Part shown: piece by piece, positions 3,332 to 52,541 of the stretch
How the letters are laid out: every line of letters starts with the position of its first letter
Position numbering within the stretch: position 1 is the first letter of the stretch
Source of the DNA: a phage
Reading direction: 5' to 3' (one strand)
Sequence record: PZ019085.1
Length of the DNA stretch: 64,000 nucleotides
Program-made: the position numbers and the translations under genes
Notes under the pieces: generated by a model
Database searches by the model: none
Seen by the model: the letters and a program-made list of their open reading frames with translations, nothing else
What the model was told of the DNA's origin: nothing

Positions 3332-3871
3332 ATGAGAACATTTTTAACTGGTCCTTATCTATCCCTGATGAATGCTTTTACACACCATTCTGATGCTAGA
3401 GTAGAAGAAATTTGTAAGAACGGTTATGCCCCACCATTTGAAGACGTACTCAAGCAGTACTGTACACTTCGTTTAGACGGCGGCAGACAATCAGGTAAAT
3501 CGACCGCAGTAACTAATTTTGCTGTTAATTGGCTGTATGACGGTGGAACAGTTATTGTTCTTTCTAATACTTCAGCTTATTCTAAAATTTCTGCTGGCAA
3601 TATTAAAAAAGAATTTTCTCGTTATTCTAGCGATGATATTCGATTCCGTTTATTTACTGATTCTGTCCGTAGTTTTATTGGCAATGAAGCTTCTAAATTC
3701 CGTGGATTAACGCTTTCTCGTATTCTGTATATAATTGACGAGCCTATTAAAGCTCCTGATATGGATAAGATTTACAACATACATATTAAAACAGTCCAAC
3801 ACTGTTGCAAAAGCAAATATTGCATCGGCGGTATTGCTCGTCCTCAATTTTTTGTGATTGGAATGCAATGA
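3332..3871 (+). CDS. Hypothetical P-loop NTPase
   Basis: Walker A GGRQSGKST and Walker B-like ILYIIDEP; the track start at 3296 is GTG, ATG at 3332 preferred. Confidence 0.5.
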   Translation: MRTFLTGPYLSLMNAFTHHSDARVEEICKNGYAPPFEDVLKQYCTLRLDGGRQSGKSTAVTNFAVNWLYDGGTVIVLSNTSAYSKISAGNIKKEFSRYSSDDIRFRLFTDSVRSFIGNEASKFRGLTLSRILYIIDEPIKAPDMDKIYNIHIKTVQHCCKSKYCIGGIARPQFFVIGMQ

Positions 3872-4176
3872 TGACCACTATTGAAGTTTTTGAATATTGT
3901 TATAATAGCCAAGTATGCAATAAAAGGGCCCTTGTAGAAAATTACGAGATTTACCATTTTAAACCTAAACGATATCGTTTGACTAAAGGTCCGTTCGCAG
4001 GGCAGCAGGTTCTTTGTACTGCTCCTAATGCACGGTTGATGACTAGTATTCCGCATTTCAAAATGGAATTTATTGATGGACCATTTAAGGGATTAATCAC
4101 TCAAAGTTTAATGGCGTTTAATTCCGACCCATTTTTGATTAAAGAAAAAACTTGGATAAATTTATTTTCTAATTGA
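3868..4176 (+). CDS. Hypothetical protein
   Basis: ORF track; ATG at 3868 overlaps the upstream stop. Confidence 0.45.
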   Translation: MMTTIEVFEYCYNSQVCNKRALVENYEIYHFKPKRYRLTKGPFAGQQVLCTAPNARLMTSIPHFKMEFIDGPFKGLITQSLMAFNSDPFLIKEKTWINLFSN

Positions 4177-4182
4177 GGTTAT

Positions 4183-4545
4183 ATGAAAGCATATCAAATT
4201 CTTGAAGGTGCACATAAAGGCACTATTTATTTTGAAGACGGTACTCAAGCTCGGATTATCGTCTCTAAGACTTTTAAAGAAGACGCTATTGTAGACCCGG
4301 AAATTTTCTACGGTTTGAATGCCCGTGAAATTGAAATTGAACATCAACCTAAAGTTAAAATTGAAGGTGGTCAACATCTGAACGTTAACGTTCTGCGTCG
4401 CGAAACTCTGGAAGATGCAGTTAAGCATCCTGAAAAATATCCGCAGCTGACCATCCGCGTATCCGGTTATGCAGTTCGCTTTAACTCTCTGACTCCGGAA
4501 CAGCAGCGCGACGTTATCGCTCGTACCTTTACTGAGAGTCTATAA
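4183..4545 (+). CDS. Autonomous glycyl-radical cofactor (GrcA/YfiD-like)
   Basis: C-terminal ~65 aa ([59 protein letters not shown]) matches E. coli GrcA with the RVSGY glycyl-radical motif; that half has GC-rich host-like codons. Confidence 0.85.
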
Positions 4546-4769
4546 TGGCTAAATTGATTATAGAAGGGTCTGATGATGTTTTAAAATGTTTTGCCGCCTG
4601 GTTTAGTTGCTCAGGCGAGCAATCATTCGTTGAAGCATTTAGAACGGGTGATATTACTGGAAAATATCCGTCAACCGATATCACTGTACGCGGATATGGT
4701 ATTAATGAGCCTATCCAATTGGTCGAATATGACCTTGCCACCGATGAGGAAATTCCTTATGTCGATTGA
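4545..4769 (+). CDS. Hypothetical protein
   Basis: ORF track. Confidence 0.45.
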   Translation: MAKLIIEGSDDVLKCFAAWFSCSGEQSFVEAFRTGDITGKYPSTDITVRGYGINEPIQLVEYDLATDEEIPYVD

Positions 4770-5025
4770 AGACATCAAAGGCTACAAGCCGCATACCGAT
4801 GATAAAATCAGTAAAGTGAACGCTATTAAAGATGCAGAAGTCCGTCTTGGATTGATGTTTGATGCTCTGATTGAAGAAGCATATATCTTGAAAGAAAACG
4901 AAACAGAGCAACAAACCAAAGAAGATATGGATGCAGTGCAGGCTCTTAAGTATGCTAAGCAACACCTAAAAGAAGCCAGCATGTGGGCATGTCGTGCAGT
5001 ATTTCGACCTGAGGAAAAATACTAA
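4759..5025 (+). CDS. Hypothetical protein
   Basis: Internal ATG of the 4591 ORF, preceded by gaggaaa; overlaps the upstream stop. Confidence 0.4.
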   Translation: MSIEDIKGYKPHTDDKISKVNAIKDAEVRLGLMFDALIEEAYILKENETEQQTKEDMDAVQALKYAKQHLKEASMWACRAVFRPEEKY

Positions 5026-8324: not shown

Positions 8325-8537
8325 ATGCAGCAATTAAACGAAAGACAACTTCGTAATCTTACTGTAACCCAATTGGATGAAATCCGAAGAGAATTAGGAC
8401 ATTCTATTTCTCATTTAAACGAGGATATCCGTCAAACTGGTTCTAAAGCTGATTATACACGCAAGCGCAAGCTGGAAAAATACCTCACAGATGTTAAGGC
8501 CGTCCAAAGGCGAAAAATAAATACTGGCCAAAATTAA
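8325..8537 (+). CDS. Hypothetical protein
   Basis: ORF track. Confidence 0.45.
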
Positions 8538-8549
8538 CAGGAGGCCTAT

Positions 8550-8852
8550 ATGGCCTTAAGAGCGATAGCTGTCATGGCGATGCTGGGGTTTTTTGCAGCA
8601 ACAACTCCTAACGTTGGTACTGCGTACACCGACCCATATTTTGATAACTTTATGGAATCAGGGATTAAAAACGTATATACTTTGTTTGAAATTCAAAATG
8701 TCGAGAATTCTGAAAAATTCTATAAGTATATGGCAAAGCATTACAAAAATAGCCCCTGTGACGATGCATTTGAATGTCATGAACAAGGCATAAAAACTGC
8801 CAGACAATTTGCCGAGTTCATGAAAATAAAATTAGAGCCTACATCTATCTAA
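8550..8852 (+). CDS. Secreted or membrane hypothetical protein
   Basis: N-terminal hydrophobic signal (AIAVMAMLGFFAATTP). Confidence 0.5.
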   Translation: MALRAIAVMAMLGFFAATTPNVGTAYTDPYFDNFMESGIKNVYTLFEIQNVENSEKFYKYMAKHYKNSPCDDAFECHEQGIKTARQFAEFMKIKLEPTSI

Positions 8853-36646: not shown

Positions 36647-37282
36647 ATGAAAACTACACCAATCACTATCGCTATTGACGCAATCGTAAAACAAGCTTCA
36701 TCTCTTGCCACTATGGCTAAAGTAATTAGTCAAAACCCTGCCCGATATAATGCTATTCTTGAAACTCTTCGTCGCCCTGGACTGAGTAATTATGAAAGCC
36801 GAGTAATTATTACAGGTGTTGGTAAGAATGCTAATATTGCAACTAAAGCTTCTGAGACATTTGCTTCATTAGGTATTCCTAGCATGTATTTGAACACTGG
36901 GCATTATTCTCATGGTGACGCAGGATTTATTGCACCTAATGATGTATTAGTTCACATCAGTCGTTCTGGTAAGACTGAAGAAATGATAGGTGTTGCTAAA
37001 CATCTTCGTATGATTCGTCCTCAGGTTAAACAGATTCTGTTACATTGTAACCCTGACATTCCACAAGAATACGAAGCTCTTTTTGATTATACGTTCTGTA
37101 CCGGTATCGCGGTAGAAGTTGACGAGAACTCTTTAGCTCCGACGATGTCTACTACATTGTTGTTAGCGCTTATCGATACGTTCGCTATCAACCTTTCATC
37201 TGAACGTGGATTTACCTCTAATGATTTCCTTAAGTTCCATCCAGGCGGTGCACTAGGTGCCATGTTACGAGGCGAGCAATGA
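36647..37282 (+). CDS. SIS-domain sugar-phosphate isomerase (KdsD/GutQ/GmhA-like)
   Basis: ITGVGKNANIATKASETFASLGIPSMYLNTG...HGD...VLVHISRSGKTEEM matches the SIS-domain pattern of arabinose-5-phosphate or phosphoheptose isomerases; no CBS domain. Confidence 0.8.
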   Translation: MKTTPITIAIDAIVKQASSLATMAKVISQNPARYNAILETLRRPGLSNYESRVIITGVGKNANIATKASETFASLGIPSMYLNTGHYSHGDAGFIAPNDVLVHISRSGKTEEMIGVAKHLRMIRPQVKQILLHCNPDIPQEYEALFDYTFCTGIAVEVDENSLAPTMSTTLLLALIDTFAINLSSERGFTSNDFLKFHPGGALGAMLRGEQ

Positions 37283-37422
37283 AAGCAATAACAATAGGAC
37301 TTTTACTATTGATGCTTGTCATGACTATCTATTGGAGCTTAACGGCTCCAGTAATGATTCCAACACTTGTAATTGGATGGATTATGATTGGACTACAAGC
37401 AAAGTATGAATGCTTTAACTAG
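37279..37422 (+). CDS. Possible 47-aa two-TM membrane peptide
   Basis: MKAITIGLLLLMLVMTIYWSLTAPVMIPTLVIGWIMIGLQAKYECFN; ATGA-type overlap with the SIS gene stop. Confidence 0.3.
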   Translation: MKAITIGLLLLMLVMTIYWSLTAPVMIPTLVIGWIMIGLQAKYECFN

Positions 37423-37463
37423 AATAGTGTACAATACTCCTACTTACCAATGAGGACCACAAC

Positions 37464-39149
37464 ATGAAAAAAGCTGTTATTCTTGGTGCTGGACTGGCAA
37501 CTCGTTTGTATCCAATAACGCATCATATTCCTAAGGTGCTTGTTAACTATAAACAAGACACTATTCTGAGCAATTTGTATACAATTTATTCTGACCTTGG
37601 CGCAGATGAAATTATTGTAGTAGTTCATTCAAAATTTGCTGAAACTGTTCGAGCTTATTGTGAGCAAGAAGGGTTCAATGTGACTATTCGTACAGTTGAT
37701 GAAGCATACGGATCTGCTTATGCTCTTGCTAAATTACACAAAGATTTAGACGGCCATAATGTAATTGTTAACTGGTGCGATATTATTCCTGATTTTGGTT
37801 CATGGTCTTGGAATGTTAACGCAATCTATGTTAAGGGTGACGAATGTCGGTATAATTTCGACGGTGAAAATATCACTAACGTAGGTTCAACAGGTGGTAA
37901 TGTTGTAGGAATTTATCAGTTCAAAGACTGGGAATTCTATATGGGTTCTACCGATGAGGAAATTCATGAATACTGCAAAGGACGTGATTTCGTAGAATTC
38001 CTTTACAGCGGCGCATTCAATAAATCAGAGCTTATGAATATAATTGATTTAGGTGATATGCCTAAACTTGAAAAAGCTCATGAAGTTCGTGAACTTAATC
38101 GTAGTTTTAATGCAGTTGAAATTGGTGAAGAAACTGTAACTAAATTCGCATTAACCGAACAGGGCCGAGCTCTTCAGAAAGATGAGATTTCATGGTATCT
38201 TAAAGTGAAATCAGATTCAGTTCCTCAGTTAGTTTCTGTTAATGAAAATAACTTTGAAATGGAACGCATTAAAGGTAAGCCGGCATTTGAATATATTAAA
38301 TCCAAATCAAGTCTTGCTCGTCCACAAATTGTTGATGCAATTTTAGATGCACTGAAATTCAGCACAGACACTTATTTTGTAAGTCCTGAAACTGTTCGTC
38401 GTGATTTCACTAAAGAATTCTATACGAAAGTTATTGATCGTTGTGAAAGTATTCAACCATTGATTGATTCATTTGGTAAAATCACACATGTGAACTACAC
38501 TAAGATTGGACGTCTGAAGCCAATGCTGAAACAAGCTTTAGAACACCTTATTCGTTATCATAACCGTTCTCAGGGACAGTACTCTGTTATTCATGGTGAC
38601 CCTAACTTCAGTAATACTATGATTACTGATAACGGCGAAGTCAAGTTTATCGACCCTCGTGGATATTTTGGTGAAACCAAGATTTACGGGCCAAAATTGT
38701 ATGACGAAGCTAAAGTGCTTTATGCTGTTTCAGGTTATGATGAATTCAATGCTAATCCGACCTGGGGACAGTTTACTATTGATGAAACAACTTGTAATGT
38801 GACTATTAACATCAATCCATTAATTTACAAATATGGAAAGATGAGTTCGTTTAACGAGTATCATCATTTGGCGGTGGCAATTATCTGGATTGCATTGGGT
38901 GGTTATTTCAAGAATAATCCACTTAAAGCGGTAGCCGCATATTATAAAGGTATGGAACTTCTGACTAAGCAATTACGTAACATGGGCCGTGTACTTCAGG
39001 ACGGCTCTATTAGTTATGACGTAGCAGAACCTGTAACGGCTACTCTGATTACAAAAAATCCTGGTAAATGGGTACTAACTGATAAAGAAACTGGTGTTTC
39101 TTATCGTCCAATCGGTGGCGATATCACTCATCAATGGGAACGAATCTAA
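37464..39149 (+). CDS. Bifunctional sugar-1-phosphate nucleotidylyltransferase / APH-like sugar kinase
   Basis: N-terminal ILGAGLATRL (RmlA/GlmU-type NTP-transferase G-x-G-T-R motif); C-terminal HGDPNFSNTMI ... FIDPRG (phosphotransferase/choline-kinase-like catalytic loop). Confidence 0.75.
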   Translation: MKKAVILGAGLATRLYPITHHIPKVLVNYKQDTILSNLYTIYSDLGADEIIVVVHSKFAETVRAYCEQEGFNVTIRTVDEAYGSAYALAKLHKDLDGHNVIVNWCDIIPDFGSWSWNVNAIYVKGDECRYNFDGENITNVGSTGGNVVGIYQFKDWEFYMGSTDEEIHEYCKGRDFVEFLYSGAFNKSELMNIIDLGDMPKLEKAHEVRELNRSFNAVEIGEETVTKFALTEQGRALQKDEISWYLKVKSDSVPQLVSVNENNFEMERIKGKPAFEYIKSKSSLARPQIVDAILDALKFSTDTYFVSPETVRRDFTKEFYTKVIDRCESIQPLIDSFGKITHVNYTKIGRLKPMLKQALEHLIRYHNRSQGQYSVIHGDPNFSNTMITDNGEVKFIDPRGYFGETKIYGPKLYDEAKVLYAVSGYDEFNANPTWGQFTIDETTCNVTININPLIYKYGKMSSFNEYHHLAVAIIWIALGGYFKNNPLKAVAAYYKGMELLTKQLRNMGRVLQDGSISYDVAEPVTATLITKNPGKWVLTDKETGVSYRPIGGDITHQWERI

Positions 39150-39535
39150 TGCATCGTGTAGAAAACATGCTTAATCTTTGTTTTGATGTCGACGATTGTA
39201 TAACAGAGTGGAATAACAATCGTGATTACGTGAACTTCAAGCCAGACGTCGAAATGGTGTCTGCCATTAATGCCCTGTATGATGCAGGGCATACCATAAC
39301 GCTTTACACTGCTCGTGGTATGAAGTCAGTAGGTCCTGGTCGTATAGCAATTGACATTCTCCCAAGTCTGATTCAGAACTTGGCAAACATTGGCTTGAAG
39401 TACCATAATTTGCTAACACATAAACCAGTATATGATTGGATTATCGACGACAAAGCTATGCGTCCCGACGAATTCAAAGCTCTTATGAATAAAGGCGAAT
39501 TCGAAACATTTAAATCATATAAACCGAATCTATAA
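39149..39535 (+). CDS. HAD-superfamily phosphatase-like protein
   Basis: FDVDDCIT near the N-terminus, TARG, WIIDDKA; size typical of KdsC/GmhB-type small HAD phosphatases. Confidence 0.55.
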   Translation: MHRVENMLNLCFDVDDCITEWNNNRDYVNFKPDVEMVSAINALYDAGHTITLYTARGMKSVGPGRIAIDILPSLIQNLANIGLKYHNLLTHKPVYDWIIDDKAMRPDEFKALMNKGEFETFKSYKPNL

Positions 39536-39589
39536 TAATTTAAGTAAGACCTGCAAAAACCATCGCATAAATTAACGCGAGATGCAAAA

Positions 39590-40750
39590 ATGAATACTTT
39601 TAAAATCGGAACGAATTTTGATTTAGCTCTTCTTGATAAAATCGTAGAGCTCAATAAAACTTATCCTAATAGCTTGATAAACGAAGTATACGGCTCTACA
39701 AGAGAAATGGCTTTTGTAGCAGCCAGACCTGATTTTAGGCTTCCTGACGTTGACAAAAAGATGTTAGAAGATTACGTTAAACGTTGTAATGAATTAGGTA
39801 TTTGCTTTAACTATACACTCAACACGATAAATCCCGGTTCAAAAAGAGAACTAGTTGAGTGGAAGAAGAAAGCTATTCAGGATTATGTTCAGTATCTTTG
39901 GTCAATAGGCGTATGGCGTATTACTATCGCTAACCCTGTTGTTATGGAAATTGTTCGTGAAGTCAATAAAGACATTGAGATTGAAGTTTCAACAATTCTA
40001 CATGTCGATGCTGTAACTCAAATCAAATACTTACATGACCAATACAATATCAAAAAGGTCTGCTGTGGAATTCATAAGAACCGTTCAGTTTCTTTCCTGA
40101 AGCGTGCAGCAGAGTTTTGCAATAAGAACAATATAATATTTGAAGTTCTTGTAAATGAGTTCTGTTCTAATGCTGGTAAAGGGTATACAACACATTGTAG
40201 CTATCGTGACTCTTGCTATATTTTCCATAGTACTGATGTTACAGCTGATGATGCTAAATCCTTAAACGGGTATCCAATGCAACACTGCATTAAAGCTCGT
40301 GATACAGACCCATTTAACTGGTTGAGAACTCGTTTTGTTCGTCCTCAAGATTTGAAACTTTATAATGATATTGGTATCACTCAATTCAAAGTTTCAGGAC
40401 GTACAGGTAGCACAGACTACATTTTGAAAGTTCTTGAAGCATACGCTTCTGAAAAGTTTGAAGGTAATTTGTTAGAACTGTGGAAGCCTTTAGAGACTAT
40501 TTTCACTCTTGAAAACGAAACTGAGTTTTCACATACAGTAAATATTGAAACCTCTTTGTTAGATGGCTTTTTAGAAAAAAGGTGGTTCAGGCATCCAGAT
40601 TTCGATTGTGCTAATGAAATCTGTGGGACGACGTGTACATATTGTGAAAGATATTATAAACGTCAGTTATCTAAAAACGGGTTAGCAGAAAACTCTATAT
40701 CTATTATTGATATAACTAACTCTGATGACGCTTTGAGGTACCCAGAATGA
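39590..40750 (+). CDS. Cys-rich hypothetical enzyme in the sugar island
   Basis: 386 aa with multiple conserved-looking Cys clusters (CANEICGTTCTYC, EFCSNAGKGYTTHCSY); fold not assignable by eye. Confidence 0.55.
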   Translation: MNTFKIGTNFDLALLDKIVELNKTYPNSLINEVYGSTREMAFVAARPDFRLPDVDKKMLEDYVKRCNELGICFNYTLNTINPGSKRELVEWKKKAIQDYVQYLWSIGVWRITIANPVVMEIVREVNKDIEIEVSTILHVDAVTQIKYLHDQYNIKKVCCGIHKNRSVSFLKRAAEFCNKNNIIFEVLVNEFCSNAGKGYTTHCSYRDSCYIFHSTDVTADDAKSLNGYPMQHCIKARDTDPFNWLRTRFVRPQDLKLYNDIGITQFKVSGRTGSTDYILKVLEAYASEKFEGNLLELWKPLETIFTLENETEFSHTVNIETSLLDGFLEKRWFRHPDFDCANEICGTTCTYCERYYKRQLSKNGLAENSISIIDITNSDDALRYPE

Positions 40751-43294: not shown

Positions 43295-44467
43295 ATGTCT
43301 GATTTAAAATCTCGTCTGATTAAAGCTTCTACTTCTAAAATGACTGCAGACTTGACTAAGTCTAAGCTGTTTAATAATCGTGATGAAGTCCCTACTCGTA
43401 TTCCGATGTTGAATATTGCATTAGGTGGTGCACTGAATGCAGGGTTGCAATCAGGCTTAACTATTTTTGCTGCTCCTTCTAAACACTTTAAAACGTTGTT
43501 TGGACTAACTATGGTTGCAGCATATATGAAGAAATATAAAGATGCAATTTGTTTGTTCTATGATTCAGAATTTGGTGCTTCAGAATCTTATTTTCGTTCA
43601 ATGGGTGTTGATTTAGACCGTGTAGTTCATACTCCGATTCAATCTGTCGAACAACTTAAAGTTGATATGACTAATCAGCTTGACGCGATTGAACGCGGTG
43701 ATAAAGTTATTATCTTTATCGATTCAATCGGTAATACTGCATCTAAGAAAGAAACCGAAGATGCGTTGAACGAGAAAGTTGTAGGTGATATGTCTCGTGC
43801 TAAGGCACTTAAATCTCTTTTCCGTATTGTGACCCCGTATCTGACTATTAAAGATATCCCGTGTGTTGCAATCAACCATACAGCAATGGAAATCGGCGGA
43901 CTATATCCTAAAGAGATTATGGGTGGTGGTACAGGTATTCTTTACTCTGCTAACACCGTATTCTTTATCTCTAAACGTCAGGTTAAAGAAGGTACAGAAT
44001 TAACCGGTTATGACTTCACGTTGAAAGCAGAAAAATCTCGTACAGTTAAAGAGAAATCTACTTTCCCGATCACGGTTAATTTTGATGGCGGTATTGACCC
44101 ATTCAGTGGCTTGTTAGAAATGGCAACTGAAATCGGTTTTGTGGTTAAGCCTAAAGCTGGTTGGTATGCTCGTGAATTCCTTGACGAAGAAACAGGTGAA
44201 ATGATTCGTGAAGAAAAATCATGGCGTGCTAAAGCTACTGATTGTGTAGAATTCTGGGGACCATTGTTTAAACACAAACCTTTCCGAGATGCAATTGAAA
44301 CTAAATATAAACTAGGTGCTATCTCTTCTATTAAAGAAGTTGATGACGCTGTTAATGACCTTATTAATTGCAAAGCAACAACTAAAGTTCCGGTTAAAAC
44401 TTCTGATGCTCCATCCGCAGCAGATATAGAAAACGACCTTGACGAAATGGAAGATTTCGATGAATAA
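43295..44467 (+). CDS. uvsX: RecA-like recombinase UvsX
   Basis: Matches T4 UvsX; Walker A-like APSKHFKT; acidic C-terminal tail. Confidence 0.95.
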   Translation: MSDLKSRLIKASTSKMTADLTKSKLFNNRDEVPTRIPMLNIALGGALNAGLQSGLTIFAAPSKHFKTLFGLTMVAAYMKKYKDAICLFYDSEFGASESYFRSMGVDLDRVVHTPIQSVEQLKVDMTNQLDAIERGDKVIIFIDSIGNTASKKETEDALNEKVVGDMSRAKALKSLFRIVTPYLTIKDIPCVAINHTAMEIGGLYPKEIMGGGTGILYSANTVFFISKRQVKEGTELTGYDFTLKAEKSRTVKEKSTFPITVNFDGGIDPFSGLLEMATEIGFVVKPKAGWYAREFLDEETGEMIREEKSWRAKATDCVEFWGPLFKHKPFRDAIETKYKLGAISSIKEVDDAVNDLINCKATTKVPVKTSDAPSAADIENDLDEMEDFDE

Positions 44468-44801
44468 TCTCGATGATTTAAATCTAGAAATCGTTGATGA
44501 ATCCCCTTCTTCGGAAGGGGAAGACATTCGCAAAGAACGAGTGTTTAATGAATCTCTTAAAATTATCCGTTCAGCAATGGAAAATGTCATTCAAGAGATT
44601 CTGATTACGCTTGAAGATGGTTCTCATCATATAGTCTATATTACAAAACTAGACTGGGTTGATGGTAAAATCGTAATGGACTTTGCAGTTCTTGACCAGG
44701 ACAGAAAAGCAGAACTTGCACCACATGTTGAAAAATGTGTTACAATGCAAGTACAACAAGCTTTTAATGAACGGACCAAGAAAAAATTTAAATTCTTTTA
44801 A
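44460..44801 (+). CDS. Hypothetical protein at the position of T4 gp40
   Basis: Position between uvsX and 41; ATGA-type overlap with the uvsX stop. Confidence 0.4.
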   Translation: MNNLDDLNLEIVDESPSSEGEDIRKERVFNESLKIIRSAMENVIQEILITLEDGSHHIVYITKLDWVDGKIVMDFAVLDQDRKAELAPHVEKCVTMQVQQAFNERTKKKFKFF

Positions 44802-44810
44802 GGAGTTATC

Positions 44811-46253
44811 GTGGTAGAAATTATTTTGTCTCATCTCGTATATGACCAGGCTTATTTTTCTAAGGTCTGGCCTTATATGGATTCTGAGTATTTTGAGCGT
44901 GGACCGGCAAAAAATGTCTTTAAAATTATAAAGAGCCACGTTAACGAATATAATGCAATGCCATCTATCAATGCGTTAAAGGTGGCTTTAGATAACAGTT
45001 CTTTAACTGAAGCCGAATATAAAGGAACTTCAGACCTAATTGAAAAATTGGCTGATACTCCTGAAGACCACGAATGGTTGGTTAAAGAAACTGAGAAATA
45101 TGTCCAGCAAAAAGCGATGTATAATGCTACATCCAAAATCATTGAGATTCAGTCTAATGCTGAACTACCTCCAGAACAACGTAACAAGAAAATGCCTGAC
45201 GTAGGAGCTATTCCTGATATTATGCGTCAAGCACTTTCAATTTCGTTTGATAGTTATGTCGGACATGACTGGATGGAAGACTACGAAGCACGCTGGCTTT
45301 CTTATCTGAACAAAGCACGTAAGGTCCCGTTCAAATTAAACATTCTGAATAAAATCACTAAAGGTGGCGCTGAAACCGGTACACTGAATGTTTTAATGGC
45401 CGGTGTTAACGTTGGTAAATCTTTAGGCCTTTGTTCACTTGCTGCAGATTATCTTCAAACAGGTCATAATGTTCTTTATATTTCCATGGAAATGGCTGAA
45501 GAAGTTTGTGCTAAGCGTATAGATGCAAACATGCTCGACGTATCACTCGATGATATCGATGATGGTAACGTATCTTATGCTGAATATAAAGCCAAGATGG
45601 AAAAATGGCGTTCAAAAACAACATTAGGACGTTTAGTAGTTAAACAGTATCCTACTGGTGGAGCTAATGCTAATACATTCCGTGCATTGCTTAATGAATT
45701 GAAACTCAAGAAGAACTTTGTGCCATCTGTAATCATGGTTGATTACTTAGGTATTTGTGGGTCTTGTCGTATCAGAGTTTACACTGAAAATAGTTACACA
45801 TTAGTTAAAGCTATCGCAGAAGAACTTCGTGCATTAGCAGTAGAATCTGAAACAGTTCTATGGACTGCAGCTCAAGTAGGACGTGCAGCATGGGATGCTT
45901 CGGATATGAACATGAGCGATATTGCAGAATCAGCAGGTTTACCAGCAACGGCAGATTTCATGTTGGCCGTAATTGAAACCGAAGAACTTGCACAAGCTGA
46001 ACAACAACTTATCAAACAAATAAAATCACGATACGGTGATAAGAATAAGTGGAATAAATTCCTGATGGGTGTACGCAAAGGCAACCAGAAATGGATTGAG
46101 ATTGAGCAAGAAGGCATGAACACATCTAACACAGTAAATGAAAATGCAGGTGCTCAGATGCGTCAGGCAGAGGTGAATCGTACGGAACGCGTAGGTAAAG
46201 CCAAAACAACACGTGCTGACCTAGATAGCTTAGCCAATGAGTTAAAATTTTAA
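44811..46253 (+). CDS. 41: Replicative helicase gp41 (DnaB-like)
   Basis: MVEIILSHLVYDQAYFSKVWPYMDSEYFE... matches T4 gp41; Walker A GVNVGKSLG; GTG start. Confidence 0.95.
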   Translation: MVEIILSHLVYDQAYFSKVWPYMDSEYFERGPAKNVFKIIKSHVNEYNAMPSINALKVALDNSSLTEAEYKGTSDLIEKLADTPEDHEWLVKETEKYVQQKAMYNATSKIIEIQSNAELPPEQRNKKMPDVGAIPDIMRQALSISFDSYVGHDWMEDYEARWLSYLNKARKVPFKLNILNKITKGGAETGTLNVLMAGVNVGKSLGLCSLAADYLQTGHNVLYISMEMAEEVCAKRIDANMLDVSLDDIDDGNVSYAEYKAKMEKWRSKTTLGRLVVKQYPTGGANANTFRALLNELKLKKNFVPSVIMVDYLGICGSCRIRVYTENSYTLVKAIAEELRALAVESETVLWTAAQVGRAAWDASDMNMSDIAESAGLPATADFMLAVIETEELAQAEQQLIKQIKSRYGDKNKWNKFLMGVRKGNQKWIEIEQEGMNTSNTVNENAGAQMRQAEVNRTERVGKAKTTRADLDSLANELKF

Positions 46254-46254
46254 T

Positions 46255-46280
46255 AAAAAAGGAGCCTTCGGGCTCCTTTC
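46255..46280 (+). terminator. Terminator-like UUCG hairpin
   Basis: aaaggagcc-ttcg-ggctccttt. Confidence 0.5.
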
Positions 46281-46342
46281 GGGGTTTACATCTTCCTCTA
46301 GGCATGATATGATGTACTTACACCAACCAAGAGGAAAACACT

Positions 46343-46717
46343 ATGAATATGTCTCAAGCAATTTTTACTGCAATCACCGAAAACACAACTGTTGAAGTAG
46401 TTTCTCCGCTGGCAACCTACGTTATTCTTGCTCCTAAAACTATTGTATCTCGTATGGAAAACACGGGCAAACGTATTGTACAAATTGTTGGAGCTGGAAA
46501 TCAAAAACTTGATTATCTGCGAACTATCAAAGCTTACGAACATTTCCAAATCGAAAAAGGTTCTCCTATCCAGGTAGAACTCGTAAATGGTGATATCGTT
46601 CGAGCAATGTTCCATCATTTCTATGCATTGAATGACCAATCTAAAGCGGTTCGTTTAATTGCATACGACGCAAACCAAAACGAAATCAACGCAGACGTAT
46701 CTAAATTACGTTTTTAA
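46343..46717 (+). CDS. Hypothetical protein
   Basis: ORF track; early promoter upstream. Confidence 0.5.
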   Translation: MNMSQAIFTAITENTTVEVVSPLATYVILAPKTIVSRMENTGKRIVQIVGAGNQKLDYLRTIKAYEHFQIEKGSPIQVELVNGDIVRAMFHHFYALNDQSKAVRLIAYDANQNEINADVSKLRF

Positions 46718-46768
46718 GTTTACTTCTCCAGTAGTTGTGTTATTATAGACCTATCAACTACTGGAGAA
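46718..46768 (+). promoter_or_regulatory. Early promoter with 14-bp inverted repeat ttctccagtagttg/caactactggagaa bracketing the -10 and forming the SD
   Basis: gtttac at 46718-46723, tattat at 46741-46746; repeat arms 46724-46737 and 46755-46768. Confidence 0.55.
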
Positions 46769-46772
46769 CAAA

Positions 46773-47090
46773 ATGAAAACCATCGATTGTAAAGCAGAAT
46801 TTAAGATTTTTTATCACGGTTCAAGTAGTTCAGCTAACATCGAAAACATGCTTTGTCCTCCTGAAGAAACAGGAGTTCTGTCTGAAACAGGACGTAAGAA
46901 AAACTTGGATCGTGTATTCTTTACTGAAGATATCGGTTTAGCAAAGATTTATGCAGGACGAGCAGCACGCTCTTATGGAGGTGAACCACGTCTCTATCGA
47001 GTAATTTCTCCGGTAGATGTAGTTCAAATGAATGATACTAAAGGCGCTACAGTTTATCACGCTGAATGGGCATTTTGCGAGGAAATATGA
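46773..47090 (+). CDS. Hypothetical protein
   Basis: ORF track. Confidence 0.45.
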   Translation: MKTIDCKAEFKIFYHGSSSSANIENMLCPPEETGVLSETGRKKNLDRVFFTEDIGLAKIYAGRAARSYGGEPRLYRVISPVDVVQMNDTKGATVYHAEWAFCEEI

Positions 47091-47275
47091 GCAAATTAAC
47101 TAAAGTTACTTTTATCGGTTGGTTTAAAAGTGGTGAGATGTTCACTAAAGATATCATGTTATCAGGTGATCGCGAAGAAATCGAGTGGGTTGCGGTACAA
47201 CTTGCTGAAGTGAACAACGCATTAGTTAAAGCATTTGTTAATGACGAGAAAGTTTTCGAAGCAGATTTTCGATAA
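47087..47275 (+). CDS. Small protein, possibly Dmd-like antitoxin
   Basis: 62 aa; position near gene 41 where T4 dmd lies; similarity to Dmd is from uncertain recall. Confidence 0.3.
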   Translation: MSKLTKVTFIGWFKSGEMFTKDIMLSGDREEIEWVAVQLAEVNNALVKAFVNDEKVFEADFR

Positions 47276-47344
47276 TTTTAAAAACTGTTTACAAGCACTA
47301 CATACTGTGTTACTATCTTTCTATCAACTATAGAGGAAATTGAA

Positions 47345-47713
47345 ATGAAAAAATTAATCGCTTTAGCAATGGTATTTGGATTAACCGGATGTGGTGCCCA
47401 TGGCTTTATTCCTAATAATGTTGGCCAACTGATTTACAATCCGAATGTTAAACAATATGAACAACCTAAAGTTGAAGTGGAAGACCCGGTTACTGTAGGT
47501 AATCGAATGATTCAAGCTGATGCTCATGCTCAACGTTATCGTGATTCCGATACTGTAGCTATGTCAAAAGAACAGCGCGTTAAAGAACATTGCTTACAGG
47601 CTACTGAAATCGCATTCATTCGCTATGTTGAAACAACTGGTAAAGAGCCTACCCAGAAACAAATCGCGAATAACTACGTCCAGTGTATTGAACGTTTAAA
47701 CAAATTTAATTAA
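47345..47713 (+). CDS. Lipoprotein
   Basis: Signal peptide with lipobox LTGC. Confidence 0.55.
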   Translation: MKKLIALAMVFGLTGCGAHGFIPNNVGQLIYNPNVKQYEQPKVEVEDPVTVGNRMIQADAHAQRYRDSDTVAMSKEQRVKEHCLQATEIAFIRYVETTGKEPTQKQIANNYVQCIERLNKFN

Positions 47714-47774
47714 TTGGTTTACACTAAAGTTAAAATAAGATACTATAAGCATAACAAATCAAGAGGAAATTAAC

Positions 47775-48023
47775 ATGGAATTATTCGTAGCTAGTTCAGT
47801 AGCAGTTTTAATCGCAGGTATTGGTTCAATCATCATTTACATGTTGCCTTGGGTAATCGCACTTATTCGTGGCACAAAAAGCACAACAGCAATCTTCTTT
47901 GTATCTTTACTCTTTAACTGGACGATGGTTGGTTGGATTGGAACTTTAATTTGGTCCATCGTTGCCGAAAAGAAATCGGCTCAGCAGCCTCAACAAGTAA
48001 TTATTATTCGCGAAAAAGAATAA
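47775..48023 (+). CDS. Small two-TM membrane protein
   Basis: Hydrophobic segments VAVLIAGIGSIIIY and IFFVSLLFNWTMVGWIGTLIWSIV. Confidence 0.5.
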   Translation: MELFVASSVAVLIAGIGSIIIYMLPWVIALIRGTKSTTAIFFVSLLFNWTMVGWIGTLIWSIVAEKKSAQQPQQVIIIREKE

Positions 48024-48086
48024 ACTTGTTTACATTATAGATGGACTATAGTATAGTAGTCCTATCAAATCAACTAAGGAGTTAAA

Positions 48087-48380
48087 ATGAAAAAGTTATC
48101 ATTGGCAGCAATCTTACTTGCAGTATCATGTGCACCGGCTCCAGTTACAGCAGGTTATGATAAAGACCTCTGTGAGTGGTCAATGACTGCAAATCAAGAA
48201 GATGTTGAACAACAAATCTTCTCTGATATCATGAACATCACTAAACGAGACCGTCCTAATATGGTTAATAAAGTTGTTGAACAACTTAAGTCTGGCGGTA
48301 TCATGCAGTACAACTATGTTTTGTATTGTGACCCTAATTTCGATAACAAAGATATCGTAACCGAAATCACAGGTGAATAA
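48087..48380 (+). CDS. sp: Spackle-like periplasmic protein
   Basis: 97 aa with signal peptide; GYDKDLCEWSM ... YVLYCD resembles T4 Sp as recalled; position in the 41-61 interval. Confidence 0.65.
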   Translation: MKKLSLAAILLAVSCAPAPVTAGYDKDLCEWSMTANQEDVEQQIFSDIMNITKRDRPNMVNKVVEQLKSGGIMQYNYVLYCDPNFDNKDIVTEITGE

Positions 48381-48381
48381 T

Positions 48382-49032
48382 ATGATTTATTATATGCACA
48401 AAAATGCGCCGTTTAAATATGGTAAATTTCCTAATGCACAATGTTATAATATAACGCCGAATGAAAATAATAATGGATACCATATTGGTGTAATTTTTGT
48501 AATTGTTAAAGATAATGAAATCGTTGCCTGGGCAGATTTTAAAGGTACAACGTATGATGTTAATCCTGTGCCTTTCACGTATTACAATATAATGGATTTG
48601 GCATATGATTATAATTGGTTTACTCATGACACGTTGGCTCATATTGAAGGTGTAGGATTTGACATCTCTTATTCTAGTTATTCACTATGTCCTATGAGCC
48701 GAGCTCACGGTAAAGATGTATCATATCTTTCAATTCGGAAACGTGTAAACTTCAAACGTAGCACAGAGTATGTTGGTGGACTCTTTGTTAAAGATAATAA
48801 AATAACCCGTATTAGTTATCCTTTAAGTGTAGGTCAAAAAGATGTTGATGTTGATTTAGACTTAACTGAAAGTAACATTAATCGTATTGCTTCTGTATAT
48901 TTTGATATCGATGAAAAAATTGTAGTGTGTGGATACGAATTACCACCTGAAGAAAAGGCTGAAGCAATTGAAGTCGAATTAGAAATTTCTGTCGATGACC
49001 AAATATTTAATGCATTTATGAATCGAGGTTAA
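48382..49032 (+). CDS. Hypothetical protein
   Basis: ORF track; very AT-rich codons. Confidence 0.5.
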   Translation: MIYYMHKNAPFKYGKFPNAQCYNITPNENNNGYHIGVIFVIVKDNEIVAWADFKGTTYDVNPVPFTYYNIMDLAYDYNWFTHDTLAHIEGVGFDISYSSYSLCPMSRAHGKDVSYLSIRKRVNFKRSTEYVGGLFVKDNKITRISYPLSVGQKDVDVDLDLTESNINRIASVYFDIDEKIVVCGYELPPEEKAEAIEVELEISVDDQIFNAFMNRG

Positions 49033-49033
49033 A

Positions 49034-49231
49034 ATGACTACTGCAATTTGCACTGGTTCTAAAATTAGTGTTTTTACAAGTTTTGAAGATTACGAAGTTG
49101 TTTCAAAACACCAATGCCATATTAGCGTAAAAGCTAATGATGGTGTAATTTGGAATATTCCACAGTATGAAGGCACTACATATGAAGTCACGGATATAAA
49201 TGGTGACAAAGCAATCTTTGTAATTGATTAA
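49034..49231 (+). CDS. Hypothetical small protein
   Basis: ORF track. Confidence 0.4.
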   Translation: MTTAICTGSKISVFTSFEDYEVVSKHQCHISVKANDGVIWNIPQYEGTTYEVTDINGDKAIFVID

Positions 49232-49250
49232 ATATACTCAGGAGGTACCT

Positions 49251-49718
49251 ATGGGTATTATTAACACTGCAATAGATTCTGTTTATGCATATAAGTTTAT
49301 TCGACTAATGCAAAAACCTTTTACCGAATGGAAAGCGTATGAAGCCAAAATCATCGATGAACGTGGAAGTGTTCTTAAACGTCCTTCTACTCCTGAAGAG
49401 AAAGCGGCTTATACACCTTTTCATGCTTCAGTTCGTTCAATGAAGCGAATGATGAGCACTGTTCCAGGTCTTAATGGAATGGCCTCAATGATGTCTGCCT
49501 GGAGTGCTGTAGCTTCACGCTATAACATTACGGAAGAACAACAGAAAGAAATATTTAAAGAACTCCCTTTATTTGAGGATATGGTTGCCGGCGATTCAGG
49601 CGGTAGTCCTCAAGCTATTGCATCAGGAACAACTACAGGTGCAGTAGTAAATAAAGGTCCAGAACAAATTCCTTCCAAGAAAAGAAAGCGAATTAAAGTA
49701 AATATTAATAAGTTGTGA
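49251..49718 (+). CDS. Hypothetical protein
   Basis: ATG 49251 after aggagg. Confidence 0.45.
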   Translation: MGIINTAIDSVYAYKFIRLMQKPFTEWKAYEAKIIDERGSVLKRPSTPEEKAAYTPFHASVRSMKRMMSTVPGLNGMASMMSAWSAVASRYNITEEQQKEIFKELPLFEDMVAGDSGGSPQAIASGTTTGAVVNKGPEQIPSKKRKRIKVNINKL

Positions 49719-49757
49719 TATGATGGCCTTATTAATTTAAGGCCTCTGGAGAATACT

Positions 49758-50780
49758 ATGGCTGAATGGATAGATAATGAATTTGCTTATCGTGCGTTTT
49801 CTCACCTACCTCGTTTTAGACAAATCAATAATTCAAGCACATTTAAATTAACATTTCGATGTCCAGTTTGTGGCGACTCCCAGACAGATGCAATGAAAGC
49901 TCGCGGATGGTATTATGGCGGTACTCCAGGTAATGTGCATTGCTATAACTGTCAATATCATAATACAATTTCCGGATACTTAAAAGAGTATGATGAAGAG
50001 CTTTATCGCGAATATCTAATGGAAGTTCGTAAAGAAAAAGCTAGAATGGAACCAAAGATTGAAAAGGTTCCTGAAGCTAAGCCGGAGCCAGAGAAAAAGA
50101 CTATAAATTCTTTGCCGTCTTGTTCTCGTCTGGACAAGCTGCCTGAAGAGCATCCTATTGTGAAATATGTTAAGTCTCGGTGTATTCCTAAAGAATCATG
50201 GAACAGATTATGGTTCACATTAGAATGGCCCAAATTGGTCAACAAGATTCAACCTGGTACGTATAAGAAAGAGATTCCCGAACCACGTTTAGTGATTCCT
50301 ATTTTTAATAAAGATGGTAAGGCCGAGTCATTCCAAGGACGTGCACTTCGTAAAGATGCTCCTCAGAAATATATCACTATTAAAGCGTTTGAGTCTGCAA
50401 CAAAAATTTATGGTGTTGAACGTGTTAAGGAAGGGGACGTCTGGGTAATGGAAGGTCCTATTGATAGTTTATTCATACCAAATGCAATCGCTATTACAGG
50501 CGGCTCAATAGATTTAGATGTGGTACCATTTAAAGAACGTCGGGTATGGGTAATGGATAATGAACCTAGGCATCCGGATACTATAGCTCGCATGAAGCGA
50601 TTAGTTGATGCAGGCGAACGTGTCATGTTCTGGGACCGAGCTCCATGGAGATCAAAGGATGTGAATGATATGGTAATGAAAGAAAATGCAACACCACAAG
50701 AAATTTTAGAATACATGAAACAGAATATTTCAAGTGGGTTGCATGCTAAAATGAGATTATCTCGTTATTCGAAGATTTAA
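49758..50780 (+). CDS. 61: DNA primase gp61
   Basis: N-terminal zinc ribbon CPVCGDS ... CYNC; TOPRIM-like region. Confidence 0.9.
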   Translation: MAEWIDNEFAYRAFSHLPRFRQINNSSTFKLTFRCPVCGDSQTDAMKARGWYYGGTPGNVHCYNCQYHNTISGYLKEYDEELYREYLMEVRKEKARMEPKIEKVPEAKPEPEKKTINSLPSCSRLDKLPEEHPIVKYVKSRCIPKESWNRLWFTLEWPKLVNKIQPGTYKKEIPEPRLVIPIFNKDGKAESFQGRALRKDAPQKYITIKAFESATKIYGVERVKEGDVWVMEGPIDSLFIPNAIAITGGSIDLDVVPFKERRVWVMDNEPRHPDTIARMKRLVDAGERVMFWDRAPWRSKDVNDMVMKENATPQEILEYMKQNISSGLHAKMRLSRYSKI

Positions 50781-50974
50781 ACAAGCCCTATAATAGCAAA
50801 AGCTAGGTCAACTACAGTATCCAATGGAACAGAAGGAACCATAACACCATGGGCAACTAACAATGGTGCAATCCCGAAGTTCCATGAAATAATGCCACCT
50901 ACAACTATTGCGGCGATAGCAGTTTTCTTTTTATTGCCTTTAATAGCGTTTATTAACGATGGAAGTTTAAACAT
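50777..50974 (-). CDS. Small membrane protein on the opposite strand
   Basis: Only convincing minus-strand ORF in the window; strong SD (aggag) before its ATG; hydrophobic (AIAAIVVGGIISWNFGIAPLLVAHGV). Confidence 0.45.
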   Translation of the reverse strand: MFKLPSLINAIKGNKKKTAIAAIVVGGIISWNFGIAPLLVAHGVMVPSVPLDTVVDLAFAIIGLV

Positions 50975-51005
50975 AATATCTCCTTAGTTACCTTATTATT
51001 TATTA

Positions 51006-51030
51006 CGCTTTATAAAATTAATGTTAGAAT
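51006..51030 (+). promoter_or_regulatory. Middle-promoter-like element (cGCTTTA box, -10 tagaat) upstream of gene 56
   Basis: MotA-box variant with 12-nt spacing to tagaat. Confidence 0.4.
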
Positions 51031-51064
51031 TATCTCTCTTACTACTGAATTGAAAGGAAAAATT

Positions 51065-51586
51065 ATGGCGCACTTTAACGAATGTTCACAACTTATTTCT
51101 GGTGTTGATAAAGCAGAAGAAGCTTATTTTAATGCTCTGATTCATGAAGATAAAGACCCACTGCAGGTAATGCTTGATATGCAGAAATCTTTACAGGTTC
51201 GTCTGGCAAATGACAAGCCTGAATATAACAAACATCCTGATGAATTGGCTACCGCCGGTGATGTTGTTGATTGGCTGCGTAATCAGAAAGATTATATTGA
51301 TGATGAATTCCGTGAACTGCTGACTTCACTTGGCGGTATGAGCAATGGTGAAAAAGCCGCTAGCTCTGTATGGAAGCCGTGGAAAGCACAACATGCTGAA
51401 TATCGTAATCGTCGTATCGATGAACTGTCTCCTGAAGACCAGCTTGAAATTAAATTCGAGATGATTGATATCCTCCACTTTGTTCTGAATATGTTCCAAG
51501 GCCTTGGACTTACTGCTGAAGAAATCTTTAAACTGTATTACCTGAAAAATGCTGAAAACTTCGCACGTCAAGACCGAGGTTACTAA
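51065..51586 (+). CDS. 56: dCTPase/dUTPase gp56 (MazG-like)
   Basis: MAHFNECSQLISGVDKAEEAYF... matches T4 gp56. Confidence 0.85.
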   Translation: MAHFNECSQLISGVDKAEEAYFNALIHEDKDPLQVMLDMQKSLQVRLANDKPEYNKHPDELATAGDVVDWLRNQKDYIDDEFRELLTSLGGMSNGEKAASSVWKPWKAQHAEYRNRRIDELSPEDQLEIKFEMIDILHFVLNMFQGLGLTAEEIFKLYYLKNAENFARQDRGY

Positions 51587-51748
51587 TGGCTCGTTTAAAT
51601 AAACGACAGCTTAAGAAAGCCCACAAGAAACGTATTGACCGGCTATTTAAAAATTATGACAAGAAGCTCGTATGTGAGCTCTTATCTAATCAGCTTCAGC
51701 ATGTTAGTCAATTATCAGACCATCTACATATGGTTGATTGGGTTGCAA

Positions 51749-51973
51749 ATGAAACTTGATTTTTATGCATGGCAAAAAGCCGGGAGACCGGCTAATAAAG
51801 CATTCGGCTCTGATGGATATAATACTAGACTCCACTGGAAATTTAATACTCAAGATGATTATTCTCCGGTAATCATTAATGGTGATGTTGTTATATTAGC
51901 TAAATTCGGATATTTTATTGTCCCGAAGAAATTCATTATAAATACACCTGTAATTAAACAACAAAGGAGTTAA
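51749..51973 (+). CDS. Hypothetical small protein
   Basis: Internal ATG of the 51635 ORF; contains the soc late promoter near its 3' end. Confidence 0.35.
   Translation: MKLDFYAWQKAGRPANKAFGSDGYNTRLHWKFNTQDDYSPVIINGDVVILAKFGYFIVPKKFIINTPVIKQQRS
51937..51944 (+). promoter_or_regulatory. Late promoter TATAAATA upstream of soc
   Basis: Exact TATAAATA about 30 nt upstream of the soc ATG. Confidence 0.55.
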
Positions 51974-51975
51974 TT

Positions 51976-52212
51976 ATGGGTGGTTATGTAAACATCAAAA
52001 CCTTTACGCATCCTGCTGGTGAAGGTAAAGAAGTTAAAGGTATGGAAGTTTCTGTACCGTTTGAGATTTATTCAAACGAACATCGGATTGCAGATTCTCA
52101 TTACCAAATCTTTCCATCAGAAAAGGCAGCTTATTCTGATGTCGTTTCTGATGCAGCAACTTGGAAAACTAAGAACGCAGCAATGTTTACCCCTACACCA
52201 GTAAGTGGTTAA
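51976..52212 (+). CDS. soc: Small outer capsid protein Soc
   Basis: MGGYVNIKTF ... HYQIFPSEKAAYS matches T4 Soc. Confidence 0.85.
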   Translation: MGGYVNIKTFTHPAGEGKEVKGMEVSVPFEIYSNEHRIADSHYQIFPSEKAAYSDVVSDAATWKTKNAAMFTPTPVSG

Positions 52213-52220
52213 ATAATTTA

Positions 52221-52246
52221 AGGAATCCTTCGGGATTCCTTTTTTT
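52221..52246 (+). terminator. Rho-independent terminator
   Basis: aggaatcc-ttcg-ggattcct followed by six T. Confidence 0.75.
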
Positions 52247-52313
52247 GTTTCTACAGTTTACAACCACTAAAAACTGTGTTAAGATATTCTTACTTACTCA
52301 AGAGGAGAACAAT

Positions 52314-52541
52314 ATGTTAAATCGTTGGATTAAACCTAATAACACATTAGGTGCTTTGATTGCTCAAGAAGTTTCATTAAAGTACGGTCTTGGATATTAC
52401 GATGATGTAGTCGTACACTCATTCATGATGGATGGTGAAGACGTCAAATTTAATGCTGAAATCCGTTGGGATGATGGTGGTGTTCGTTTTGTTCGAGGAA
52501 CAATTAATGCTTACGATACTGAAGAAGTTGTTTTCTGTTAA
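52314..52541 (+). CDS. Hypothetical protein
   Basis: ATG 52314 after agaggag. Confidence 0.45.
   Translation: MLNRWIKPNNTLGALIAQEVSLKYGLGYYDDVVVHSFMMDGEDVKFNAEIRWDDGGVRFVRGTINAYDTEEVVFC

Follow-up and report, generated by a model that had tools for sequence, protein, structure and literature searches.

The interval between genes 41 and 61 of the phage DNA recorded as PZ019085.1, of which a stretch of 64,000 nucleotides (the window) was analysed, holds nine accessory genes and five promoter-like sites, and is very probably the Mosigvirus (RB69-type) version of the T-even hyperplastic 41–61 region, with exclusion and anti-toxin functions assigned by homology. In the initial annotation, nine small genes had been placed at 46343–49718 between 41 and 61 and described as a cluster of envelope-targeted and candidate anti-defence genes, in an interval that in T4 holds superinfection-exclusion and anti-toxin functions. 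All nine genes are indeed present, and the description of the T4 interval agrees with the T4 record, in which the order is 41-dmd-61.4-sp-61.2-61.1-61. The interval itself is 3,504 bp long and consists of nine plus-strand open reading frames (ORFs), non-overlapping save for an ATGA shared by the second and the third of them.

The phage is a Mosigvirus (RB69-like). With the 3.5-kb interval as the query, 490 phage records were matched, at least 80% of the interval being covered in 153 of them, and the closest matches were Escherichia phages of Mosigvirus with 98% identity, such as AV109, mobillu and AlbertHofmann/Bas47. All nine proteins match PHROG families (E values from 1e-28 to 1e-130) and are 97–100% identical to RB69 proteins; therefore, the genes are real and none of them is a chance ORF. 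The starts at 47087 (dmd), 48382 (adfA) and 49251 (long 61.1), for which the ORF listing also offers longer alternatives, are supported by homologues. In the RB69 reference record (NC_004928), ORF041c, ORF040c, dmd, 61.4, imm.1, imm, sp, 61.2, ORF033c and ORF032c/61.1 follow each other in the same order and orientation as in the window, and the same order is also annotated in Bas47 and mobillu. The differences are that RB69 has 61.4 (tifA), which the window lacks, and that AdfA differs in a few residues, with Arg164 kept.

In T4, the interval occupies the same position between the helicase and primase genes and lies on the same strand, and its dmd, sp, adfA and 61.1 are homologous to those of the window at 53–75% identity, but the window version, with 3,504 bp and nine genes, has about double the length of the T4 one (1,648 bp and five genes). 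Six of the window genes have T4 homologues (dmd, imm.1, imm, sp, adfA/61.2 and 61.1), and three (the 124-amino-acid ORF 1, the 105-amino-acid ORF 2 and the 65-amino-acid ORF 8) have no counterpart in the T4 41–61 interval. That is to say, relative to this T4 interval, the window has gained ORF 1, the ADP-ribosyltransferase (ART)-like ORF 2, the imm.1-imm pair and ORF 8, is without tifA, carries a 61.1 of 155 instead of 54 amino acids, and encodes an AdfA with Arg in place of the T4 His. Because the flanking gp41 and gp61 are 85% and 74% identical to those of T4, the interval has diverged more than its flanks, so that the earlier view of it as expanded and diverged was correct. The homology search against T4 that had been proposed as a check was carried out, and the identities found were 33% for Imm.1 (E 3e-19), 64% for Imm from end to end, 53% for Dmd, 66% for Sp, 65% for AdfA against gp61.2, and 75% for the C-terminal 40 amino acids of 61.1. 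For T4, the region was proposed by Srikant et al. in 2022 as an 'anti-TA island' (TA, toxin–antitoxin) with dmd, tifA and adfA (PMC9391042).

By hydropathy, envelope segments are found in three of the nine proteins only, namely Imm.1, Imm and Sp, and the other six are without them. The first of these genes, imm.1 (47345–47713, plus strand), lies upstream of imm and encodes a lipoprotein of 122 amino acids in the DUF5481 family (PF17578; 38.3 bits against a cut-off of 27, E 1.9e-09), which is 98% identical to RB69 Imm.1 and has a hydrophobic N-terminal segment at residues 4–22. Its lipobox is LTGC (Cys16), as had been recognised earlier, and stands at the same place as LAGC in T4. The two-transmembrane (two-TM) membrane protein of the initial annotation is the product of imm (47775–48023, plus strand), by homology an inner-membrane superinfection immunity protein of 82 amino acids; it matches the Imm_superinfect family (PF14373; 56.9 bits against a cut-off of 27.9, E 1.8e-15), is 100% identical to RB69 Imm, and has hydrophobic segments at residues 1–34 and 40–59. 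No second imm copy was found in the window, so this gene is the sole one. In T4, imm.1-imm is located between genes 43 and 42; in the window, the pair has the same order and orientation but lies between dmd and sp, and by their homology the two genes form the imm.1-imm cassette, which is relocated relative to T4. In the window, the 43–42 slot (36647–40750), where T4 has imm.1-imm, is occupied by genes for a SIS-domain protein, a 561-amino-acid nucleotidyl-transferase, a 133-amino-acid ORF product and a U32-like protein, presumably an RB69-type sugar (arabinose) DNA-modification cluster.

The Spackle-like protein is encoded by sp (48087–48380, plus strand), whose product of 97 amino acids would be, by homology, a periplasmic inhibitor of the tail-spike gp5 lysozyme. 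It matches T4_Spackle (PF25676) over the full length (positions 1–96 of 96; 145 bits, E 1.1e-42), and has an N-terminal signal in the form of a hydrophobic segment at residues 4–24; moreover, Gly23 (the mature N-terminus), Cys29 and Cys81 are found at their T4 positions, as expected of a Spackle protein. It has been reported that T4 Spackle inhibits the gp5 tail lysozyme, and the mechanism was published in 2020 (PMC7677548).

The possible Dmd-like antitoxin noticed earlier is the product of dmd (47087–47275, plus strand), which is 62 amino acids long and by homology an antitoxin-like inhibitor of the host RNases RnlA/LsoA. Its match to the Pfam family Dmd (PF17587) covers profile positions 3–59 of 60 with 69.7 bits (cut-off 27, E 2.7e-19), and it is 97% identical to RB69 Dmd. 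The stop codon of ORF 2 overlaps the dmd start in the sequence ATGA (47087–47090), which suggests translational coupling of the two genes, and a single promoter-like site lies upstream of the ART-dmd pair at 46718, a layout consistent with co-transcription.

The 216-amino-acid protein that had been placed at roughly the position of T4 61.2 is encoded by adfA (61.2; 48382–49032, plus strand). It matches PF23813 over positions 1–211 of 211 (393 bits, E 3.2e-118) and is 98% identical to RB69 AdfA; the name, anti-DarT factor A, was given to 61.2 by the LeRoux group (PMC11257639). R164 of RB69 AdfA is the Arg in NNINRIAS, and the window sequence SNINRIAS has Arg as in RB69 and Bas47, whereas T4 has His (IINHIAS); in other words, the DarT1-neutralising His allele at RB69 position 164 is absent from the window AdfA. 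It has been shown that the RB69 escape mutation R164H creates DarT1 binding, and that the RB69 Arg164 allele neither binds nor neutralises E. coli DarT1 (PMC11257639).

When T4 61.4 (tifA) was searched for by tblastn, no match was found anywhere in the window, including the position next to dmd. In RB69 and Bas47, a TifA homologue of 70 amino acids with 57% identity to T4 TifA is encoded directly after dmd (compared at 4751–4963 of the RB69 stretch and 4027–4239 of the Bas47 stretch), and at this junction in the window (47276–47290, plus strand) about 209 bp are cleanly missing in comparison with both of them. The tifA product is an inhibitor of ToxN. Since RB69-type tifA is present in 69 of the approximately 155 related records, its presence or absence is a common polymorphism.

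The pattern of T4-early-type promoters (GTTTAC-N17-19-TANNNT) was matched 23 times in the window against 2.9 expected, a number reached by none of 100 shuffles, and 20 of the 23 matches are on the plus strand. Five of them lie in the intergenic gaps of the interval directly after stop codons, at 46284, 46718, 47287, 47717 and 48028, and these five sites, like the hairpins described with them, are on the plus strand. The first site, P1 (46284–46313; GTTTACA ... TATGAT), is located ahead of ORF 1 and is preceded by a G+C-rich, terminator-like hairpin after the gene 41 stop (46258–46279; 9-bp stem GGAGCC(C)..GGGCUCC, z = −2.98 in the fold of 46251–46345). P2 (46718–46773; GTTTACT ... TATTAT) is contained in an inverted repeat of 14–19 bp (46719–46737/46755–46773, 89% complementary) that encloses the −10 region and forms a stem-loop at 46724–46768 (−21.5 kcal/mol, z = −5.74), the whole being similar to a cassette boundary of the promoter-early stem-loop (PeSL) type. 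P3 (47287–47316) ahead of imm.1 and P4 (47717–47746) ahead of imm both read GTTTACA ... TACTAT, and no significant stem-loop was found at their boundaries (47273–47347, z = −0.37, and 47711–47777, respectively). P5 (48028–48066; GTTTACA ... TATAGT), with a stem-loop over its −10 region (48040–48066, z = −2.25), heads the run sp-adfA-ORF8-ORF9 and possibly gene 61 as well, and a further hairpin of −12 kcal/mol (49722–49746, z = −2.77) lies between ORF 9 and the gene 61 start. According to these sites and the gene spacing, the interval is divided into five units: ORF 1; ART-dmd; imm.1; imm; and sp-adfA-ORF8-ORF9, with gaps of 1–19 nt in the last. A single site, within ORF 2, was given by the generic terminator scan; chance alone would give more, and the site was disregarded. 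A longer promoter consensus, GTTTACTTCTCC...TGTGTTA(C/T)TAT, occurs at 5245, 8898, 46718 and 59764, which suggests that promoter cassettes are repeated elsewhere in the window.

For T4-type phages, Arbiol et al. (2010, PMC2839356) put forward PeSL cassettes as mediators of modular shuffling. Like them, the window has strong sigma-70-like early promoter motifs directly after stop codons, stem-loops that overlap or precede the promoter at three of the five boundaries, and presence or absence of whole genes, but the stems of RB49/phi1 are of the GGGG...CCCC type and those of the window are not. The promoter and stem-loop layout resembles PeSL and is in line with the differences by whole cassettes that separate the window from T4 and Mosigvirus isolates from each other, and shuffling of this kind may have shaped the interval.

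Taken together, the following course of events may be proposed. Headed by five T4-early-type promoter-like sites, the nine-gene array is, for this reason, probably expressed in the first minutes of infection. Three envelope products would then exclude superinfecting T-even phages, with Imm blocking DNA entry, Spackle inhibiting the incoming gp5, and the lipoprotein Imm.1 as the third of them, and two cytoplasmic products would neutralise host toxin–antitoxin defences, that is, Dmd the RNases RnlA/LsoA and AdfA a DarT-type DNA ADP-ribosyltransferase. The changes relative to T4 would be changes of whole cassettes: imm.1-imm gained from the 43–42 slot, ORFs 1, 2 and 8 added, and tifA lost. Cassette differences of this kind are what would result if recombination took place at the repeated boundaries of promoter and stem-loop (PeSL-type shuffling).

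Between P2 and dmd lies ORF 2 (46773–47090, plus strand), whose product of 105 amino acids corresponds to RB69ORF040c and is, by predicted fold and transitive Pfam homology, an Arr/KptA-like mini-ART domain. The predicted fold is that of an ART, and the H-G-[ST] motif of NAD (nicotinamide adenine dinucleotide) binding is present; this N-terminal motif is common to ORF 2 and to Arr and Tpt1/KptA, which are small members of the ART superfamily. At 105 amino acids, ORF 2 is shorter than Arr (a chain of 140 amino acids), and of the 179-amino-acid Tpt1 chain, 75 residues align to it, so that by length it corresponds to part of Tpt1 only, which we take to be the NAD-binding lobe and not the RNA-binding lobe. 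When the ORF 2 family profile was searched against 1.84 billion representatives, 222 relatives were found, many of which are domains within proteins of 870–3,924 amino acids. Three intermediate proteins (P0264, P0248 and P0272) are matched by the profile with E values of 1e-23 to 1e-25, and on the stretch aligned to ORF 2 they score 29.4, 27.5 and 27.3 bits against Arr-ms (cut-off 25). A core of YHG[ST]..LPP..SE.GRKKNLD.VFFT..AKIYAGRA..GG.P is common to ORF 2 and the domains of the large proteins, and the partner domains in the latter are ART-PolyVal, NUDIX, 2H/Acb1-like phosphoesterase, lambda-type portal, Toprim and GNAT. This multi-domain architecture is presumably that of phage 'polyvalent proteins', and the 2H and NUDIX partners hint at chemistry on ADP-ribose or RNA ends.

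About 610 phage records have a homologue of ORF 2, among them those of 116 Klebsiella, 68 Acinetobacter and 62 Aeromonas phages; the identity is 64–72% in phages of Klebsiella, Aeromonas, Acinetobacter, Pantoea and Serratia, which is unusually high for an accessory gene. Within the T4-like group, H15-G16, the loop E38-G40-R41-K43-N44-L45, F49/F50/T51, Y60, R63 and E103 are invariant or nearly so. In some GenBank records, the homologue already bears the label 'ADP-ribosyl transferase'. The 105-amino-acid start is the one conserved across homologues; in the Bas47 annotation (3595–3837 of the Bas47 stretch compared), the ART starts at an internal Met and is 80 amino acids long, whereby the invariant F-Y-H-G-S NAD-binding motif is dropped. 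In the Acinetobacter phage Acj61, at 1–1797 of the stretch compared, a nicotinamide phosphoribosyltransferase (NAD+ salvage) gene precedes the ART homologue by about 1 kb, and sp and long 61.1 follow this homologue closely; this gene order means that the ART/sp/61.1 neighbourhood persists in a distant genus without dmd.

The remaining three genes have no assigned role. ORF 1 (46343–46717, plus strand) encodes 124 amino acids, matches phrog_10668 (E 1e-83) and is 97% identical to RB69ORF041c. It is an ORFan restricted to Mosigvirus: only two clusters of it were found in 5.8 billion proteins, almost all of the 135 phage records in which it is present show at least 95% identity, and no match to it was found in Pfam, the Protein Data Bank (PDB), PADLOC or NCBIfam. 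ORF 8 (49034–49231, plus strand; 65 amino acids, phrog_3249, E 3.2e-33) is 100% identical to RB69ORF033c and is present in 263 phage records, including those of JS98-like phages, with no match in Pfam or PDB. A homologue with 40% identity is also carried by Shigella phage Sf12 (NC_047848) at 8377–8571, in an unrelated and smaller genome of 47.6 kb, which points to horizontal movement of this gene between phage families.

ORF 9 (49251–49718, plus strand) is the long form of 61.1 with 155 amino acids, consisting of a helical N-terminal domain and a conserved C-terminal tail (MVAGDSGG..IASGTTTGAVVNKGP..KKRKR) that is probably disordered. In T4-like phages of many hosts, members of the 61.1 family are about 155 amino acids long. 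In the alignment, T4 gp61.1 (54 amino acids) covers a few N-terminal residues and, after them, the invariant tail MVAGDSGG..IASGTTTGAVVNKGP..KKK, and therefore looks like an internal-deletion remnant of the 155-amino-acid gene. For this comparison, T4 61.1 was taken at 3967–4131 of the T4 stretch and the RB69 counterpart at 2318–2784 of the RB69 stretch; in the RB69 reference record, the gene is split at a frameshift into ORF032c and 61.1, and in the window it is intact. The string 'GDSGG' in the tail was considered as a serine-protease motif and rejected, as the tail is probably disordered and the Ser varies in homologues (GDAGG, GDAEG, GNASA).

How far the nine genes share a common theme has to be weighed. 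The interval could also be a permissive insertion site that gathers unrelated small early genes, the apparent theme arising from the few genes that have been studied. Four of the nine genes (ORFs 1, 2, 8 and 9) are without a known role, so the envelope and anti-defence label for the whole cluster is an extrapolation; genera differ in gene content, and so do Mosigvirus phages among themselves; ORF 1 is an ORFan, ORF 8 is also found in an unrelated 47.6-kb phage, and imm.1-imm is elsewhere in T4. All of this is compatible with a site of mixed content, and some further points weigh against the functional reading given above: the activities are transferred from orthologues of T4 (33–66% identity) or RB69 (97–100%), a significant stem-loop is found in only three of the five promoter-bearing intergenic regions, which makes the PeSL-type architecture partial, and deletion of adfA in T4 gave no DarTG1 phenotype (PMC11257639). 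On the other side, five of the nine (dmd, imm, sp, adfA and the former tifA slot) are homologous to proteins with experimental roles in exclusion or counter-defence (PMC7677548, PMC9391042, PMC11257639), a share judged, without quantification, to be above that of a random sample of T-even accessory genes. An interval with no functional theme is therefore considered unlikely, and the Mosigvirus version of the T-even region, with exclusion and anti-toxin functions, is the preferred explanation. The interpretation given in the initial annotation is supported by the homology to the T4 counterparts; of its label, the anti-defence part stands for the Dmd and AdfA homologues and the envelope part for Imm.1, Imm and Sp, while envelope targeting does not extend to the cluster as a whole.

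As for ORF 2, it is very probably an NAD+-using enzyme, judging from the predicted fold and the homology chain, and would be active on a conserved target, for which a nucleic acid or small molecule is likelier than a fast-evolving defence protein. On a broader and more tentative proposal, it would be among the smallest active ARTs, a member of the Arr/KptA clade that is conserved in T4-like phages of Escherichia, Klebsiella, Aeromonas and Acinetobacter and serves again as a module of giant phage polyvalent proteins, that acts early in infection on a conserved non-protein target such as RNA ends or a small molecule, and that is co-translated with Dmd in RB69-type phages because both deal with RNA-targeting host defences. 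The enzyme assignment has to be set against three results: no Pfam family was matched by ORF 2 at E ≤ 0.1, and thus there is no direct match to Arr-ms (PF12120); no PDB sequence was matched, either by the single sequence or by the family profile; and Glu103 is conserved within the T4-like subgroup only and not in the domains of the large proteins. A different role would be that of a protein-targeting anti-defence ART like AcrIF11, by which a specific host immune protein is ADP-ribosylated and disabled, so that ORF 2, Dmd and AdfA would all belong by function to one anti-defence island. That ORF 2 neighbours known anti-defence genes and follows an early-type promoter-like site agrees with this, as does the presence of the domain in polyvalent proteins, presumably delivered along with the DNA against host defences. 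However, the very high conservation across Escherichia, Klebsiella, Aeromonas and Acinetobacter phages speaks for a conserved target and not for a defence protein that varies, and structure and Pfam both link ORF 2 best with Tpt1/KptA and Arr, whose substrates are an RNA 2′-phosphate and a small molecule. For ORF 2 there is neither a PADLOC match nor a literature link to such a role, which is held to be unlikely and somewhat less probable than the proposal of a non-protein target. A phage-borne toxin–antitoxin-like pair is more improbable still, with ORF 2 as the toxin and Dmd as its cognate antitoxin besides being the RnlA/LsoA inhibitor. Such a pair, of a 'p0068-family ART' and Dmd, was predicted computationally by Iyer et al. 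in 2022 (PMC9503650), and the ATGA overlap, the conserved ART-dmd adjacency in Mosigvirus-type records and the occurrence of the same ART domain in large multi-domain conflict proteins are in its favour. Yet the two distributions are separable: ART is found in 610 records and Dmd in 799, the latter confined to phages of Escherichia, Shigella, Yersinia, Salmonella and Citrobacter, so that the linkage is not obligate, ART occurring without Dmd in Klebsiella, Acinetobacter and Aeromonas phages and Dmd without ART in T4-type phages, T4 itself included. Moreover, the gene after ART is unrelated to Dmd in 44RR2.8t, Acj61, RB16 and KLB31, where the downstream ORFs gave no Dmd Pfam match and no BLAST similarity to Dmd, and an ART identity of 64–72% across distant hosts is unlike fast-evolving toxin/antitoxin pairs. 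In the searchable literature on ORF040c/p0068 and on an anti-defence role of the RB69 ART, there is only the 2022 computational prediction and no experimental study.

Upstream of the interval, uvsX (43295–44467) is followed by gene 40 and by gene 41 (helicase, 44811–46253), and downstream of it lies gene 61 (primase, 49758–50780). The 61–56 gap, where T4 has dam, is occupied by a 65-amino-acid hydrophobic ORF of the RB69ORF029w type (50777–50974, minus strand; phrog_2024), after which comes gene 56 (dCTPase); this ORF is convergent with gene 61, overlaps its end by 4 nt, and is the only minus-strand gene of the neighbourhood. NCBIfam and PADLOC searches gave no match for any of the ten proteins queried, and searches of PDB chain sequences with ORFs 1, 2, 8 and 9 gave nothing meaningful. 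In 44000–52500, the Rfam scan (E ≤ 1) gave only sub-threshold hairpin matches, and no tRNA was found by the tRNA scan.

The layout of the interval is already known from the RB69 reference annotation and the published work on the region (PMC9391042, PMC11257639, PMC7677548). What is added here is the relocation of the imm.1-imm pair, the lack of tifA, the assignment of AdfA to the Arg164 allele and the apparent origin of T4 61.1 as a deletion remnant, together with fold-level and transitive-homology evidence for ORF 2 as a putative Arr/KptA-like ART whose distribution is separable from that of Dmd. Laboratory work would be worthwhile only on the conserved mini-ART and on ORFs 1, 8 and 9, and these genes are carried by phage isolates in the hundreds, of which some were obtained for therapy. 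The practical value of the interval is predictive and lies in its allele set of tifA, AdfA, Dmd, Imm and Spackle. The absence of tifA predicts sensitivity to ToxIN-type defence, and AdfA with Arg164 should not neutralise E. coli DarT1 on its own; with its Dmd, the phage is still expected to evade RnlAB/LsoAB, and with Imm and Spackle to keep out superinfecting T-even phages.

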